Both the position numbers and the translations under genes were made by a program. A DNA stretch of 64,000 nucleotides, taken from NCBI GenBank assembly GCA_964370735.1, contig CAYJLC010000004.1, positions 30,824 through 94,823 of the forward strand, in the 5' to 3' direction. Position 1 is the stretch's first letter. Every line of letters begins with the position of its first letter. Positions 7,265-52,680 of this stretch are shown piece after piece. The DNA is from an uncultured Oscillospiraceae bacterium. Lineage in GTDB: Bacteria; Bacillota; Clostridia; Oscillospirales; Butyricicoccaceae. Below the pieces are notes generated by a model that was not told the DNA's origin, searched no databases, and saw only the letters and a list, made by a program, of their open reading frames with translations.

Positions 7265-7276
7265 CGAAACGTTTCG
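7265..7276. promoter_or_regulatory. Operator palindrome upstream of the aldo-keto reductase gene
   Basis: A perfect CGAAACGTTTCG lies about 120 nt upstream of the ATG at 7398. Confidence 0.55.
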
Positions 7277-7397
7277 GTCGGTAGCACCGACAAGCACTTG
7301 TCTTCGCCTTATTTCAGATATTAATTATATATAGCAAAGGGTTTCTACGCCCTTCCAATAATCAAAAACACAAAAATAAAATTTAAGGAGATAAATT

Positions 7398-8411: not shown

Positions 8412-8468
8412 GTCGATAGCATCGACAGGCAATTGGCTTCGCCACGTTTCAGACAATAAAAACCAAAA

Positions 8469-8549
8469 TTGTAGGGGCGTTCATTGGACGCCCGTTTACA
8501 GAAAAATTATTGACAAAAATTAAACAAAAATTGCGTCCACGTCAGGTGG
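8469..8549 (+). repeat. Partial repeat element, copy 3 (left hairpin module plus an inverted Y-box)
   Basis: TTGTAGGGGCGTTCATTGGACGCCC (8469-8493) is identical to the left end of copy 1. GCGTCCACGTCAGGTGG (8533-8549) is the reverse complement of the CCACCTGACGTGGACGC motif at 52631. Confidence 0.7.
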
Positions 8550-25767: not shown

Positions 25768-25786
25768 TGACTAGGAAATATAACCG

Positions 25787-25835
25787 CCTGACGTGGGTGC
25801 ATTTGTGAAATTTTTTCTAGTATACCACTTTTTTG
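25787..25835 (+). repeat. Y-box repeat module
   Basis: CCTGACGTGGGTGCATTTG..AATTTTTTCTA..CTTTTTTGACA parallels 52633-52680. It shares the CCTGACGTG core with 31243, 31323 and 31402, and with 8533 (inverted). Confidence 0.6.
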
Positions 25836-25908
25836 ACATGCAAAGACGGATATCTAAGAGATATCCGTCTGAAAAGTGAAATTTTAAATGCGTCAAATTG
25901 TTTATTAG

Positions 25909-29230: not shown

Positions 29231-29563
29231 ATGCAAATTTTAGGTTTGGGGACGGATATAGTCGAGATTTCTCGAATTAGAGCGTCTATCGAAAACGAGC
29301 ACTTTATAAAGCGATTTTTCACCGAAAATGAGATGAAATATGCAGAAAATAAAACAAATCGCGAGCAAACTTATGCGGGGATTTTTTGTGCGAAAGAAAG
29401 CATTGTTAAAGCTTATGGAACGGGTTTTCGTGATATAAAATTTGTCGATATCGAGATTTTGCACGACGAGCTTGGAAAGCCTTTTTCAAACGATAAAAAT
29501 ATAATTTTAACCATTTCACATTGCAAAGAATATGCAACTGCAACTGCAATTTTTTGGGGGTAA
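29231..29563 (+). CDS. acpS: Holo-[acyl-carrier-protein] synthase
   Basis: ILGLGTDIVEISRI.. and ..FCAKESIVKAYG.. motifs are present. Length is 110 aa. Confidence 0.9.
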   Translation: MQILGLGTDIVEISRIRASIENEHFIKRFFTENEMKYAENKTNREQTYAGIFCAKESIVKAYGTGFRDIKFVDIEILHDELGKPFSNDKNIILTISHCKEYATATAIFWG

Positions 29564-29565
29564 AA

Positions 29566-30102
29566 ATGAAAAAACTTCTCTTTTTAGCGATTATTTTGCT
29601 AATTTCTGGCTGTGAAAAAGCAGTGGATTTAGAGGAAGTTGAAAACGATGTGAGAGAACATTTTGAGCATCTTGAAACAGCAAATTTTGGTGCGATTATT
29701 GTGACTAGCATTTATGACAAAACCGCGGAATTTGAAGTTGATTTCACATATAATCAGGTCGAAAATGACGTGGTAACGATAGTAAAACCAGAAAATATAG
29801 CTGGAATTACATCGGAAATTGAAAAAAATGAAGGAAATTTGAAAATTACATTCGAAGATGTGTCTATCGAAACGCTTATGCAGGATAATTTGGGTATAAA
29901 TCCGAATGATGTCTTGAGTTTTGCGATTTTTGATTTAATAAATTCGAAACCGAATTATATTGTGGTTGATGAGGAAATAAAGTTAAATTTTTCAAGTGGT
30001 GAAATTTCGAAAAATATCTTTCTAAATCGTGAAAATTATGATATAATAAGTATTGAAGGTTATATTTCTGACGAAATGGTAATCTTGCTTACTACGACTT
30101 AA
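29566..30102 (+). CDS. Lipoprotein (occupies the position of B. subtilis ydcC)
   Basis: MKKLLFLAIILLISGC contains a lipobox. The ATG at 29566 lies just after the acpS stop. No homology is claimed beyond position. Confidence 0.6.
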   Translation: MKKLLFLAIILLISGCEKAVDLEEVENDVREHFEHLETANFGAIIVTSIYDKTAEFEVDFTYNQVENDVVTIVKPENIAGITSEIEKNEGNLKITFEDVSIETLMQDNLGINPNDVLSFAIFDLINSKPNYIVVDEEIKLNFSSGEISKNIFLNRENYDIISIEGYISDEMVILLTTT

Positions 30103-30133: not shown

Positions 30134-31240
30134 ATGGTTAATAAAGATAGAACTTGGGCTGAAATTAGCCTTAAAAACATCGAAAAAAACTTAAATTTAA
30201 TAAAAAAACACACAAAAACAAAAGTTATGTGTATTGTAAAAGCCGATGCTTATGGGCATGGGCTTATGCAAGTTTCTGGCGCTTTAGCAAGGGCATCGGC
30301 GGATTATTTCGGTGTTGCAACACTTTCTGAGGCGATTTTGCTTAGGCAATCTGGCTTGGATACACCGATTTTGTTACTAGGATTTTTCGAGGAGCAGTAT
30401 GCTACCGATATTATCGAAAATAATATTACGACTACTGTTTATGAAAAAGACACTGCCGAAATACTTTCTAAATGTGCGAAAAAACTAGGTAAAATCGCAA
30501 AAATTCACATTAAAGTCGACACAGGAATGTCGAGATTAGGCTTTTTGCATTATGAAAATTTAATCTCGGAAATTTGTGAAATTTATAATATGGAAAATTT
30601 AGAACTCGAAGGTATTTTTACACATTTTTCTGTTGCAGACAACCCTGCGATGGAGGAATTTACAAATAATCAGGCAAAAAGATTTGAAAATCTATGTGAA
30701 AACCTTGAAAAAGAGGGAATTTTCTTTAAACTAAAGCATATTAGTGCATCTTCTGCGTTAATTCAATACGAGCATCTGAGATACGATATGGTAAGGGCAG
30801 GGATTGCACTTTTTGGGTACTATCCGGACGAAAATATTGACAAAACCATTGATTTAGAGCCTTGTATGACGCTTTATTCGCGAATTGCACAGGTGAAAAC
30901 GTTGAAAACTGGCGAAAGTGTTAGTTACGGCAGACGATATACGGCTGATACGGATAAAAAAATCGCGATTGTTTCTATTGGCTATGCCGATGGTTATTTT
31001 AGGGCGAATACGAATGTTGCGTATATGCTTGTAAATGGCAAAAAAGCAAAGGTTTTAGGCTCGGTTTGTATGGATATGACGGTGATTGATGTTACCGATT
31101 GTGGACAAGTGAAAAAGGGAGATAAAGTTGTTGTTTTCGGAGAAAATGGCTTGTTTGCGAATGATTTAGCAGAGTTTTCGAACACAATTACTTACGAAGT
31201 TTTATGTGCTGTCAGCAAAAGAGTGCCAAGGATATACTAA
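30134..31240 (+). CDS. alr: Alanine racemase
   Basis: The PLP-lysine motif VKADAYGHG is present. ..SRLGF.., ..GIFTHF.. and ..GYADGY.. are also present. Confidence 0.95.
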   Translation: MVNKDRTWAEISLKNIEKNLNLIKKHTKTKVMCIVKADAYGHGLMQVSGALARASADYFGVATLSEAILLRQSGLDTPILLLGFFEEQYATDIIENNITTTVYEKDTAEILSKCAKKLGKIAKIHIKVDTGMSRLGFLHYENLISEICEIYNMENLELEGIFTHFSVADNPAMEEFTNNQAKRFENLCENLEKEGIFFKLKHISASSALIQYEHLRYDMVRAGIALFGYYPDENIDKTIDLEPCMTLYSRIAQVKTLKTGESVSYGRRYTADTDKKIAIVSIGYADGYFRANTNVAYMLVNGKKAKVLGSVCMDMTVIDVTDCGQVKKGDKVVVFGENGLFANDLAEFSNTITYEVLCAVSKRVPRIY

Positions 31241-31242
31241 TA

Positions 31243-31470
31243 CCTGACGTGCACGCAATTGCTTCGCAATGTATTGACAAAGTTTTCGGAAAACCTAAAT
31301 TGCCTGTCGGTGCAACCGACCACCTGACGTGCACGCAATTGCTTCACAATGTATTGACAAAGTTTTCGGAAAAACCAAAATTGCCTGTCGGTGCTACCGA
31401 CCCTGACGTGCACGCGTTTTGTTTCGACGAAGTTTTTAGAAAACTAAACTTACCTGTCACCGTTTGTAAC
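31243..31470 (+). repeat. Noncoding tandem repeat, ~80-nt unit x about 2.8
   Basis: Units span 31243-31322 and 31323-31401 and are near-identical. A degenerate third unit starts at 31402. Each unit has CCTGACGTGCACGCA, the hairpin ATTGC-ttc-GCAAT, TTGACA-N16-TAAATT, and the hairpin GTCGGT-gcw-ACCGAC. Confidence 0.85.
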
Positions 31471-31615
31471 GAAAAACATACATTAACAAAAAAACTAAAA
31501 ATCGCATAATATAAAGTGTAGCTTATTTAGGTTAAAATATTTTTAAAAAATATGATTAAAACCGAGATAATTGTGGGAAACTAACATAAAAGAATTCCTA
31601 CGGAGAGTGAAACTT

Positions 31616-31969
31616 ATGGAGCAAATAAAACGAGGAGATATTTATTATGCAGATTTAAGCCCAGTTGTAGGTTCAGAACAAGGTGGAGTACGCCCTGTTT
31701 TGATAGTTCAAAATAATATCGGCAATAAATACAGCCCAACTGTTATAGCAGCCGCTATTACTTCGCAAATTAATAAAGCGAAAATGCCTACACATATTGA
31801 GATTGAAGCAAAACAATACGGACTTACAAAAGATTCTGTAATACTTATGGAACAGATTAGAACAATTGATAAGAAAAGATTAAAAGAAAAAATGGGTACA
31901 CTTGATATGAAATCTATAACTCAAGTGAACGAAGCTTTAGCTGTGAGCTTTGGTTTATCCGAAGAATAG
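31616..31969 (+). CDS. mazF: MazF/EndoA (PemK-family) mRNA interferase toxin
   Basis: [80 protein letters not shown] is very close to my recollection of B. subtilis EndoA. The ATG at 31616 follows GGAGAG. Confidence 0.9.
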
Positions 31970-31978
31970 GAGTAAAAT

Positions 31979-32512
31979 ATGAAGAATTTTAAACCAATTT
32001 TAATTACGAGCATGCTTGCTACGCTTATGATTTCAGGCTATTTTGCAGTTTCTGCTGAATACGGCTCTAAGGATGACCCACTTGTCAGCCTTAGCTACAT
32101 AAAAGAGATAATTTTACCTCAAACAGAAGCTATGATTGAAGAAAAACTAGCAAATAGTAATTCTAATATCAATATTTCTGAGGTTTTAGATAGTTTAGAT
32201 ACAAATTATTTAACACTTGTTAGTGATGAAACTTTTATTGATTCTGTTTCAAAAAATGTATCACCAGTAACATCTTCGGTGCTTAATTTATCTTCAGAAC
32301 AGACACTTCATTTAAGCACAGGAAGTGAAGTTTTGCTACGCACAGGTGGGCTTACTATGACTTCTGGTTCGGCTTTAAATGCAACAACGGCTGAAAACGC
32401 AGGTGCAACCATTGCAATCGACAATTTATACATAACAACAGCGAATGATACTACGATGAAATCTAGTGCTAATACAACAGTAATAGTTTTTGGGAAATAT
32501 GAATTAAAATAA
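31979..32512 (+). CDS. Secreted protein of unknown function
   Basis: It has a signal peptide/TM (ILITSMLATLMISGYFAVSA). A DPLVSLSYI motif and a Thr/Ser/Ala-rich C-terminal half are present. It starts 10 nt after the mazF stop, with an AGGAG RBS. Confidence 0.6.
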   Translation: MKNFKPILITSMLATLMISGYFAVSAEYGSKDDPLVSLSYIKEIILPQTEAMIEEKLANSNSNINISEVLDSLDTNYLTLVSDETFIDSVSKNVSPVTSSVLNLSSEQTLHLSTGSEVLLRTGGLTMTSGSALNATTAENAGATIAIDNLYITTANDTTMKSSANTTVIVFGKYELK

Positions 32513-52088: not shown

Positions 52089-52247
52089 ATGTGGCAAACT
52101 AACTGCAATAATGGTTGTGCAACAACTTGTGGTAACACTTTTGGCAATGATTATATTTGGATAATTTTAATCGTAGTCGCTTTATTAGTATGCTTTGGTG
52201 GCTTTGGAACTGGCTGCAACAATGGCTGTGGTAACACTTGTATTTAA
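52089..52247 (+). CDS. Tiny Cys/Gly/Asn-rich single-TM peptide (52 aa), YjcZ-like
   Basis: Hand translation: MWQTNCNNGCATTCGNTFGNDYIWIILIVVALLVCFGGFGTGCNNGCGNTCI. AGGAGG lies 8 nt upstream. It is not in the ORF track. Confidence 0.7.
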   Translation: MWQTNCNNGCATTCGNTFGNDYIWIILIVVALLVCFGGFGTGCNNGCGNTCI

Positions 52248-52273: not shown

Positions 52274-52378
52274 ATGTATTGCAATAATTTTGATACTATG
52301 TGGATTATAGTAATTTTAATTGTTATCGTTTGCTGCTGTGGTGGTGGATTTGGATACCCTAATAATTGCTGTAATTAA
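52274..52378 (+). CDS. Tiny Cys-rich single-TM peptide (34 aa), YjcZ-like
   Basis: Hand translation: MYCNNFDTMWIIVILIVIVCCCGGGFGYPNNCCN. A GGGAG RBS is present. Two terminator hairpins follow. Confidence 0.65.
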   Translation: MYCNNFDTMWIIVILIVIVCCCGGGFGYPNNCCN

Positions 52379-52501: not shown

Positions 52502-52680
52502 TTTTAAATTTTCACCGAATTTGTACGGGAGAACTCTGTTTTCCCTAAAAAGCAATCAAATTTCGCCGAAAAAAGGATATTTCGACCTTGTGATGTCGAC
52601 CAAAAGGATTTCATTCTTTGGAAAACTGACCACCTGACGTGGACGCATTTGGGAGAATTTTTCTAACTTTTTTGACACGA
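52502..52680 (+). repeat. Dispersed repeat, copy B, plus an adjoining Y-box module
   Basis: 52502-52604 aligns with 50217-50319. CCTGACGTGGACGCATTTG..TTTTTCTA..TTTTTTGACA (52633-52680) parallels 25787-25835. Confidence 0.75.

Follow-up and report, generated by a model that had tools for sequence, protein, structure and literature searches.

A dispersed intergenic repeat inserted between alr and a mazE-less mazF in a Clostridia genome

In Bacillus subtilis, the genes around the alanine racemase gene are ordered ydcB (acpS)-ydcC-alr-ndoAI (mazE)-ndoA (mazF). The locus considered here lies in a 64-kb stretch of DNA, which we call the window, and carries a tandem array of noncoding repeats between alr and mazF, where that order has mazE. 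An earlier note on this DNA offered two explanations: the array might encode an RNA antitoxin, as in type III toxin-antitoxin systems, or mazE was lost and its slot was colonized by dispersed repeats. Does the array belong to the toxin system, and if it does not, what keeps this MazF in check?

An alr-linked mazF without an adjoining mazE

The four genes that the earlier note had named in this order (acpS, a lipoprotein gene, alr, and an EndoA-type mazF) were all found where it had placed them, and the order is common to the window and B. subtilis. The acpS gene for holo-ACP synthase (29231 to 29563, plus strand; Pfam ACPS, E = 7.9e-17), whose position is kept in relatives, is followed by a gene for a GerS/YdcC-like lipoprotein (29566 to 30102, plus strand) with the lipobox LISG/C. 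This product had a weak NCBIfam GerS match (E = 1e-5, below the cutoff), and the Caloramator gene in the lipoprotein position matches Pfam YdcC. Next come alr (30134 to 31240, plus strand; Pfam Ala_racemase_N and _C, found in all homologues) and mazF (31616 to 31969, plus strand; Pfam PemK_toxin, E = 2e-38), the latter encoding an EndoA-type endoribonuclease toxin without an adjoining antitoxin gene. The top PDB matches of the mazF product were B. subtilis EndoA (4MDX, 4ME7, and 1NE8; E ~3e-47), with which it aligns end to end at ~65% identity. The catalytic residues of B. subtilis MazF, Arg25 and Thr48 (PMC10893535), are kept in the window MazF, and the matching residues are invariant in the homologue alignment.

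Of a type II MazEF system, the window has an endoribonuclease toxin with the PemK/MazF fold and the catalytic Arg and Thr, and no adjacent cotranscribed RHH or AbrB-type MazE was found in it. The 375-nt alr-mazF spacer holds no antitoxin-like open reading frame (ORF), in agreement with the earlier note, and no ORF longer than 25 aa apart from one generated by the repeat. A tblastn search with three MazE sequences against the window and its relatives returned nothing at E < 0.1, and the 64-kb window contained no antitoxin-like small gene and no MazE-like ORF. Canonical mazE genes were detectable by the same approach in Caloramator, where the canonical order alr-RHH mazE-mazF includes a 107-aa RHH protein, and in Avimonoglobus, where a short, uncalled mazE was recognized from its C-terminal motif.

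Eight related loci, with Alr 46 to 60% and MazF 77 to 90% identical to the window proteins, likewise have neither mazE nor the repeat. The alr-mazF spacers are 130 to 139 nt long in the loci with Alr identities of 56 to 60% (L006, L008, L009, and L001-5) and 165 to 203 nt long in those with identities of 46 to 50% (L055, L056/57, and L059); L108 carries the same leader-mazF-downstream gene module away from alr. No MazE-like ORF or repeat was found in any of these loci, L108 included. MazF is far better conserved than the neighboring Alr and its catalytic residues are invariant, so that selection acts on the toxin even where there is no repeat. An alr-linked EndoA orthologue is thus kept under strong selection without an adjacent antitoxin gene across this Clostridia group, and the loss of mazE is, as judged from sequence comparison, ancient, clade-wide, and independent of the repeat.

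Solo toxins are common (PMC2701414), and the window mazF resembles them, including Myxococcus xanthus MazF-mx, in being a conserved chromosomal mazF without an adjoining antitoxin gene. Unlike MazF-mx, the window toxin is the Firmicutes EndoA orthologue linked to alr, with a leader and a downstream partner gene that are both conserved. The locus also differs from that of B. subtilis and its clostridial counterparts: there is no mazE gene, mazF has its own conserved noncoding leader, and it precedes a conserved gene for a putatively secreted protein.

The array and its dispersed repeat family

The two near-identical units and degenerate third unit described between alr and mazF were confirmed (Tandem Repeats Finder: 31242 to 31415, period 80, 2.2 copies, 93% matches, score 304). 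Unit 1 (31242 to 31321, plus strand; also seen by nhmmer and promoter scan) consists of a head, CCTGACGTGCACGCAATT, a body with TTGACA-16-TAAATT, and a tail, AATTGCCTGTCGGTGCAACCGAC. Unit 2 (31322 to 31401, plus strand; also seen by nhmmer) is 95% identical to unit 1, from which it differs by three substitutions and one indel, a 1-nt insertion. Unit 3 (31402 to 31478, plus strand) has an identical head and a diverged body and tail, and a sequence profile (nhmmer) recovered it at 31402 to 31458 with E = 3e-6. Where unit 3 ends, comparison with related genomes also places the right edge of the insertion, approximately. The elements reported within the unit could all be read from the sequence, namely, the palindrome CGTGCACG (31248 to 31255), the hairpins ATTGC-TTC-GCAAT (31258 to 31270) and GTCGGT-GCA-ACCGAC (31306 to 31320), and the promoter-like TTGACA-16-TAAATT (31274 to 31301, found by the promoter scan). 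The G+C content of the repeat region is 44%, compared to 24% in the adjoining leader and 35% in the window. No plasmid or phage sequence matched the region in a blastn search. The unit also bears weak likenesses to CodY and Spo0A boxes.

The repeat is not confined to this spacer. The core CCTGACGTG was found at the three other places where it had been reported, 8534 to 8546 (minus strand), 25787 (plus strand), and 52633 (plus strand), and allowing up to two mismatches, it has five matches in the window versus 0.34 expected. Head and/or tail modules occupy four further intergenic loci in the window. A full-length member (8412 to 8549, minus strand), with head CCACCTGACGTGGACGCAATT, a ~100-nt body, and tail AATTGCCTGTCGATGCTATCGAC, fills the intergenic gap between two plus-strand genes; a solo tail module, CTTGTCGGTGCTACCGAC, is intergenic at 7276 to 7299 (minus strand); a diverged head copy, CCGCCTGACGTGGGTGCATTTG...TTTTTTGACA, lies between convergent genes at 25784 to 25840 (plus strand); and another head copy, CCACCTGACGTGGACGCATTTG...TTTTTTGACA, is intergenic at 52630 to 52680 (plus strand).

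Beyond the window, we scanned a 596-Gb collection that included GTDB representatives for the 18-nt head CCACCTGACGTGGACGCA, for which ~35 chance matches are expected over the whole collection. A total of 22 copies were found on 20 contigs of the Clostridia MAG CAKQXG01, and two copies each in JAWXUO01 and CAVEYD01. Tandem head copies also occur at unrelated loci, upstream of a membrane-protein gene with a 97-nt period (L047) and after an unrelated gene (L052). In viral and JGI metagenome contigs, nearly all matches were chance-like singletons in high-G+C coding sequence, and two were family-like (L082 and L105). The 18-nt core is unchanged across genomes of 33 to 51% G+C, while the flanking modules differ; exact conservation across Clostridia of such different base compositions implies a factor that recognizes it. 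The idea that the head is a transcription factor site at a fixed distance from TTGACA was rejected, as the spacing is 17, 23, or 29 nt and the orientation is inconsistent.

The family is undescribed; a full-text literature search for the core sequence found no paper, and Rfam applied to 20 family-bearing loci found only an unrelated SAM riboswitch. It would be noncoding and intergenic, with a behavior resembling that of REP/BIME, pneumococcal BOX, or MITE elements. Like these, it is short, intergenic, found in either orientation, and multicopy per genome, and it is modular (head, variable body, and tail hairpin) and occasionally tandem. The short imperfect palindromes, multiple copies, and intergenic placement that define REP/BIME elements are all present, every window copy being intergenic; the family hairpins are short, that of the head having 4 to 5 bp and that of the tail 6 bp. 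No REP-associated tyrosine transposase or other transposase was found near any family copy examined, and no recurrent transposase or other ORF was found near 26 repeat copies on 22 loci. Of inverted repeats, as in MITEs, no long terminal ones were seen, only an inner 6-bp GCAATT/AATTGC.

The insertion and the native mazF leader

When the window is aligned with its relatives (alignment A1), each relative has one gap of ~237 nt, facing window positions 31238 to 31474, and the 130- to 203-nt spacers of the relatives match the final ~135 nt of the window spacer. Since the match is limited to those last ~135 nt, positions 31241 to ~31478 are an insertion upstream of the native leader. Its edges are approximate, and a target-site duplication is unreadable, as the nearest relative is distant (Alr 60%).

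The ~135-nt leader itself is conserved (alignment A1) and contains GCATAATAT, TAGTAGCT, TATGATTAAAA, TTGTGGGAAA, and the ribosome-binding site CGGAGnGTGA. Of these, GCATAATAT is invariant in the relatives' alignment and recurs in L055, L059, and L108. A promoter-like site of the native leader, P1 (TTAACA-16-CATAAT; 31483 to 31510, plus strand), had a scan match of 10/12. Its -10 region also reads CATAnnnTA, which fits a mother-cell sigma pattern. A second conserved -10-like box, TATGAT (31551 to 31556, plus strand), lies within TATGATTAAAACC and is kept in L006, L009, L055, and L108, with TATAAT in its place in L056 and L059. Farther downstream, a conserved 5' leader stem-loop with the base GGGAA/UUCC is predicted at 31573 to 31601 (plus strand) and ends 1 nt before the ribosome-binding site GGAGAG (31602 to 31607). 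The hairpin was predicted in all seven orphan leaders folded, with inner parts that vary in length, and the L108 leader has an analogous palindrome by eye. A small leader peptide (MIKT...) was considered and rejected: L008 and L003 retain only a truncated form of 4 aa, and L056 and L059 lack it.

We consider it probable, at roughly 80%, that the array is a local cluster of lineage-specific dispersed repeats that stands outside the toxin system and that mazE was lost separately and much earlier. Two recently duplicated units and one older, diverged unit would have inserted downstream of the alr stop codon and upstream of the promoter and leader native to mazF. The spacer would by then have been empty, so that mazE would not have been replaced by the repeat. 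Of the earlier proposal that mazE was lost and its slot colonized by dispersed repeats, the colonization holds, as does the loss, which is, however, older, clade-wide, and unrelated to the repeat.

Roles considered for the repeat and the restraint of MazF

The type III reading supposes that the tandem units are transcribed, processed, and bound to MazF as an RNA antitoxin, as ToxI is to ToxN. As in ToxIN, CptIN, and TenpIN, tandem noncoding repeats lie upstream of an endoribonuclease gene, here one without a protein antitoxin, and ToxN does share its core fold with Kid/MazF (PMC3401426), as the earlier note had asserted. Yet 137 nt lie between the end of the array and mazF, the array is upstream of the conserved promoter-like boxes, and it comprises only 2.2 to 3 units of 80 nt, compared to the 5.5 tandem repeats of 36 nt in ToxI (PMC3401426). 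Unlike type III toxins, the window toxin is a PemK/MazF protein: it matches Pfam PemK_toxin only, with EndoA/MazF as its best PDB matches, rather than ToxN/AbiQ, CptN, or TenpN, and relative to EndoA it has no insertions for the extra RNA-binding elements described in ToxN (PMC3401426). If the UACAU specificity of EndoA-type MazFs (PMC10893535) extends to the window MazF, a cleavage site recurs in each full unit on the minus strand (31269 and 31349), but the sense strand of the units has none; the single TACAT reported for the spacer is indeed its only plus-strand copy, at 31479. No plus-strand terminator-like site, such as the palindromic one between the array and the toxin gene in type III systems, was found in 31000 to 32100. 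The predicted fold of the unit is no more stable than that of shuffled sequence (z = -0.3), and Rfam gave no match at the gathering score in the whole window and chance-level matches only at E <= 10 in 31100 to 31700. The repeats are dispersed rather than conserved with the toxin: the family also occupies unrelated intergenic sites and is missing at 8/8 related orphan-mazF loci. Because the repeat is missing from relatives whose mazF likewise has no antitoxin gene beside it, we conclude that the array is very probably not an RNA antitoxin; the proposal of a ToxI-like RNA for MazF is unsupported, and we regard it as highly improbable. Such an RNA would have made the locus a bridge between type II and type III systems, a claim that, given the comparative evidence, should not be carried forward. 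Still harder to credit is that the 101-aa ORF at 31204 to 31509 is a real gene, for example, for a novel repeat-containing antitoxin. For a genome of 35% G+C, the open frame is unusually long, but local G+C richness leaves the units open in several frames of both strands. The ORF starts inside alr, has no Pfam match and no similarity to MazE, and corresponds to a segment missing from relatives. It is the only long ORF in the spacer, and it passes through the first half of unit 1 in one frame and through that of unit 2 in another, both as the earlier note had described.

A regulatory insertion, in which unit promoters or hairpins change transcription of mazF and its downstream gene or of the alr 3' end in this lineage, is unlikely but deserves more weight than either of these. 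The sigma-70-like unit promoters TTGACA-16-TAAATT and TTGACA-16-CAAAAT each match at 10/12, equal to native P1, and point at mazF with no terminator in between; the region has 10 promoter-like sites versus 3.4 +/- 2.1 in shuffles, and the dispersed copies at 25784 and 52630 also have TTGACA after a T-run. Those dispersed copies, however, have no usable -10 box after TTGACA, and the orientation of the family relative to neighboring genes is inconsistent. A different candidate for the missing function is the gene downstream of mazF, which we call X (31979 to 32512, plus strand). Its product has a signal/TM segment, A-x-A/EYGSKDDPLVSLSYI, helices, and a C-terminal beta domain (alignments A2 and A5), and the gene appears to be cotranscribed with mazF. 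That X is a replacement antitoxin in reversed gene order is improbable, even though X adjoins mazF in seven mazE-less loci (at 9 to 20 nt in six and at 3 nt in L108, where it is not beside alr) and is missing from both mazE-bearing loci, a correlation that may reflect a single clade. Its positively charged N terminus, hydrophobic helix, and conserved A-x-A/E site predict an exported or membrane-anchored protein with its bulk extracellular. X had no match in Pfam, NCBIfam, or the PDB and no DNA-binding or known antitoxin domain, and only a decayed version of 63 aa remains beside the intact mazF of Intestinibacillus (L059). The structure prediction (mean pLDDT of 61) was confident only in the C-terminal beta domain. 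A PDB fold search returned weak cupin-like matches only (E ~3e-3, TM ~0.3).

Returning to the array as a cluster of dispersed repeats, we infer that it has no functional consequence for MazF beyond, at most, some additional read-through transcription; the array may nevertheless influence mazF expression or yield an RNA. What restrains MazF in this group is presumably encoded elsewhere, or else its expression is tightly controlled. A large Clostridia group would carry a module of promoter-like boxes and a 5' stem-loop, mazF, and a secreted protein of ~180 to 220 aa, with no adjacent mazE. Tentatively, and with considerable doubt, this group may have exchanged mazE-mazF for such an antitoxin-less leader-mazF-exported protein module, restrained by something other than MazE, to which the window repeat would be irrelevant. 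Under that arrangement, mazF expression could be confined, for example, to a terminal sporulation compartment, or restraint could come from translational control by the leader RNA or from an unrecognized partner. How a mazE-less MazF is restrained is a more interesting question than the repeat itself, and an alr-linked EndoA orthologue with its own leader and downstream gene offers a testable case of how a solo MazF stays harmless.

Gene order and repeat array around the alr-mazF spacer

The order acpS, lipoprotein gene, alr, and mazF proposed in the earlier note was borne out, with acpS at 29231-29563 (Pfam ACPS), a lipoprotein gene with a GerS-like product at 29566-30102, alr at 30134-31240, and mazF at 31616-31969 (Pfam PemK_toxin; preceded by the ribosome-binding site GGAGAG). 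The mazF product is an EndoA-type protein of 117 aa without insertions, and its description as very EndoA-like is justified: it matched the Bacillus subtilis EndoA structures 4MDX, 4ME7, and 1NE8 at an E value of ~3e-47 and aligned end to end with EndoA at 65% identity.

In Tandem Repeats Finder, the only strong array of the window was that in the 375-nt spacer between alr and mazF (31242-31415; score 304, with 2.2 copies of period 80 and 93% matches). Three substitutions and a 1-nt indel separate units 1 and 2, and a profile built from the two recovered a degenerate unit 3 at 31402-31458 (E value of 3e-6), confirming the two near-identical ~80-nt units and decayed third that had been described. 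Each unit comprises a head, CC(A)CCTGACGTG(C/G)ACGCAATT, whose G variant holds the mini-hairpin CCAC-CTGAC-GTGG; a body containing TTGACA; and a tail, AATTGCCTGTCG(G/A)TGC(A/T)A(C/T)CGAC, that folds as a 6-bp hairpin. G+C content is 44% in the repeat region, compared to 24% in the adjacent leader and 35% in the window. The sole long open reading frame (ORF) in the spacer (31204-31509) starts within alr, reads the first half of unit 2 in a different frame from that of unit 1, and has no Pfam match, in agreement with the claim that it is generated by the repeat and free of coding constraint.

Loss of mazE and later arrival of the repeat

With MazE sequences of Caloramator, B. subtilis, and Staphylococcus aureus as tblastn queries, neither the spacer nor the 64-kb window nor the loci of relatives showed anything MazE-like (E > 0.1 for every match), as the earlier note had claimed for the spacer; likewise, no antitoxin-like small gene appeared when the genes of the window were simply inventoried. 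The antitoxin gene is detectable where present. In the Caloramator locus, a 107-aa ribbon-helix-helix protein was called between alr and mazF, and in Candidatus Avimonoglobus (GCA_018714645.1; locus L060), the 272-nt alr-mazF spacer (L060:3671-3942) encodes a short MazE whose C terminus has the typical motif ...LRKGYEEMALLNVSLAQM... (sequence ...MERSLRKGYEEMALLNVSLAQMCLESDNDALRACEEKLTECE, then stop). The gene caller missed the latter, so apparent solo MazF loci need a translation check before they are labeled orphans.

Relatives were chosen by an Alr homology search, in which the nearest sequence beyond that of the window itself had 60% identity, and the encoding contigs were fetched. Three of these loci, L006 (GCA_044426345.1), L008, and L009, share the gene order of the window (pseudouridine synthase, acpS, 180-aa protein, alr, mazF, ~180-aa protein), with alr and mazF separated by just 130 to 139 nt. 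Sporulation- or germination-related neighbors were also observed, namely, the GerS-like lipoprotein in the window and a GerA operon in L006. All five Logan contigs of another relative (L001 to L005, assembled independently; Alr P0002) end ~30 to 95 nt past the alr stop, within the mazF leader, likely due to assembly-graph branching at the highly conserved mazF. Alignment of the spacers opened a single ~237-nt gap in every relative, facing window positions 31238-31474; from the 3' side of this gap to the mazF start codon, conservation is clear, with blocks GCATAATAT, TAGTAGCT, TATGATTAAAA, TTGTGGGAAA, and TTCCnACGGAGnGTGA. More distant loci have spacers of 189 nt (L055; 50% Alr identity), 202 to 203 nt (L056 and L057; 46%), and 165 nt (L059, Intestinibacillus sp.), with neither mazE nor any repeat, and all retain the same leader motifs. 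The spacer comparison suggested in the earlier note thus found orphan relatives with short spacers that lack both elements.

Within this group, MazF identity is 77 to 90% versus 46 to 60% for Alr, and the residues matching Arg25 and Thr48, which are catalytic in B. subtilis MazF (PMC10893535), are invariant, indicating that the toxin gene is kept by selection without the repeat. These repeat-free, mazE-free relatives show the loss of mazE to be an old event common to a wide group of Clostridia, and the repeat to have been added later, in the lineage of the window specifically, upstream of the native mazF leader. The alternative offered in the earlier note, that mazE was lost and a dispersed family colonized the slot, is therefore supported in both of its parts, but not in their connection: mazE was lost before the repeat arrived, and the two events are independent.

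A dispersed intergenic repeat family

Modules of the repeat occur at four additional loci in the window, all intergenic and inconsistently oriented to neighboring genes: one complete element of 138 nt at 8412-8549 (-), a tail alone at 7276-7299 (-), and head copies at 25784 (+) and 52630 (+). Family modules are thus present at all three places (near 8533, 25787, and 52633) where dispersed cores had been noted. We also observed two adjacent small ORFs on the + strand of the window, 52089-52247 (52 aa) and 52274-52378 (34 aa), each with a good ribosome-binding site and with a terminator after the pair; the peptides are Cys/Gly/Asn rich with a central hydrophobic segment.

A scan of a one-genome-per-species collection with the 18-mer CCACCTGACGTGSACGCA returned 45 loci, compared to ~35 chance matches expected there, and about half were singletons in unrelated phyla. 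A single Clostridia metagenome-assembled genome (MAG) from Hadza gut, CAKQXG01 (~50% G+C), carries 22 copies on 20 contigs, and two copies each occur in JAWXUO01 (33% G+C) and CAVEYD01. Across Clostridia MAGs of 33 to 51% G+C, intergenic repeats share the exact 18-mer CCACCTGACGTGGACGCA, with surrounding modules that vary by genome; the 18-mer lies at 8529-8549 (-), 31320-31337 (+), and 52630-52647 (+) in the window and at comparison loci L011, L046, L042, L045, and L019-L054. At one unrelated locus (L047), tandem heads recur every 97 nt upstream of a gene for a membrane protein, and at another (L052) they are triplicated after an unrelated gene. No recurring ORF or nearby transposase accompanied the copies; no Rfam family, plasmid, or phage matched the repeat; a literature search for the sequence was empty; and scans of viral and JGI metagenome data for the 18-mer gave essentially background. 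In behavior, the family resembles the modular repeats dispersed between genes that are known as REP/BIME, BOX, or MITE elements. It could not be assigned to any one of these by their hallmarks (a transposase of their own, long terminal inverted repeats, and target-site duplication), none of which was seen at the loci compared. It sits beside a solo MazF, and both are of already-known kinds.

Control of an antitoxin-less MazF

The earlier note had proposed that the repeat RNA is a type III (ToxIN-like) antitoxin of MazF, which we now consider extremely improbable. By published criteria, type III loci have a palindromic terminator before the toxin gene, a tandem array before the terminator, and ideally a promoter upstream, and encode ToxN, CptN, or TenpN; ToxN has additional structural elements that bind the RNA pseudoknot (PMC3401426). 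In contrast, the toxin here is a plain EndoA-type MazF, no terminator-like site lies between array and mazF, and the 135 nt separating them is a conserved promoter-bearing leader. MazFs of B. subtilis, S. aureus, and Clostridioides difficile cut UACAU (PMC10893535), yet the sense strand of the units lacks it: as stated earlier, the only one is at 31479, past the recognizable part of unit 3. The antisense strand has one per full unit (31269-31273 and 31349-31353, minus strand), with a ~15% chance expectation for a single duplicated unit. Compared with shuffled sequence, the units show no excess folding stability (sense z = -0.29 and -0.28, antisense z = +0.28; whole array z = -1.3). The main objection is that toxin and repeats are not inherited together. 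That the units supply extra transcription into mazF would be compatible with a dispersed repeat having entered the spacer, and is unlikely. Each full unit has a promoter-like site that equals the native mazF one in quality (10/12 matches; TTGACA-16-TAAATT in unit 1, TTGACA-16-CAAAAT in unit 2), with no terminator following, but dispersed copies keep no usable -10 box, so the promoter is not a conserved family property.

The constant features of the group, down to 46% Alr identity, are the leader, mazF, and a downstream gene, X, without mazE (window 31481-32512; L006, L008, L009, L055, L056, L059, and L108). In L108, this module is not beside alr and lies upstream of genes whose products match Peptidase_U4 and two sigma-70-family domain sets. 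The leader has a conserved -10-like box, GCATAATAT (GCATAATATA at window 31505-31513; equivalents in L008, L009, L003, L059, and L108), which in the window is preceded at 16 nt by the -35-like TTAACA. This box fits the sigma-70 -10 (CATAAT) and CATAnnnTA, the pattern of mother-cell sporulation sigma factors, equally well, a lead rather than a test. A second -10-like box reads TATGAT or TATAAT. A leader stem-loop (window 31573-31601) with the base GGGAAAA/UUUUCC and a variable inner part (12-nt loop to ~50 nt of extra helix) stops 1 to 3 nt short of the ribosome-binding site in each of the seven alr-linked orphan loci. This stem-loop may control translation or mRNA stability; a similar palindrome is present in L108.

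Gene X (window 31979-32512) starts 3 to 20 nt after mazF and encodes a protein of ~180 to 220 aa with a positively charged N terminus, one hydrophobic helix, and an invariant motif A-x-A|EYGSKDDPLVSLSYI, with the invariant AEYGSKDDPLVSLSYI directly after the signal/TM segment. The structure model shows helices plus a C-terminal beta domain predicted with confidence (pLDDT of 80 to 90). The family includes 2079 representative clusters (E <= 1e-3), with no Pfam, NCBIfam, or PDB match and just weak cupin-like matches in a fold search. Its position in the module notwithstanding, X is very unlikely to be the antitoxin of MazF, as it is predicted to be exported and has decayed to 63 aa in Intestinibacillus, where mazF is intact. 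Solo toxins are common, and a solitary MazF has a developmental role in Myxococcus (PMC2701414). MazF may here be restrained by a trans-encoded MazE or by tight expression control. The exactly kept 18-nt core implies some factor that recognizes it, and this core, together with the clade-wide antitoxin-less leader-mazF-X module, is where the residual value of the locus lies.
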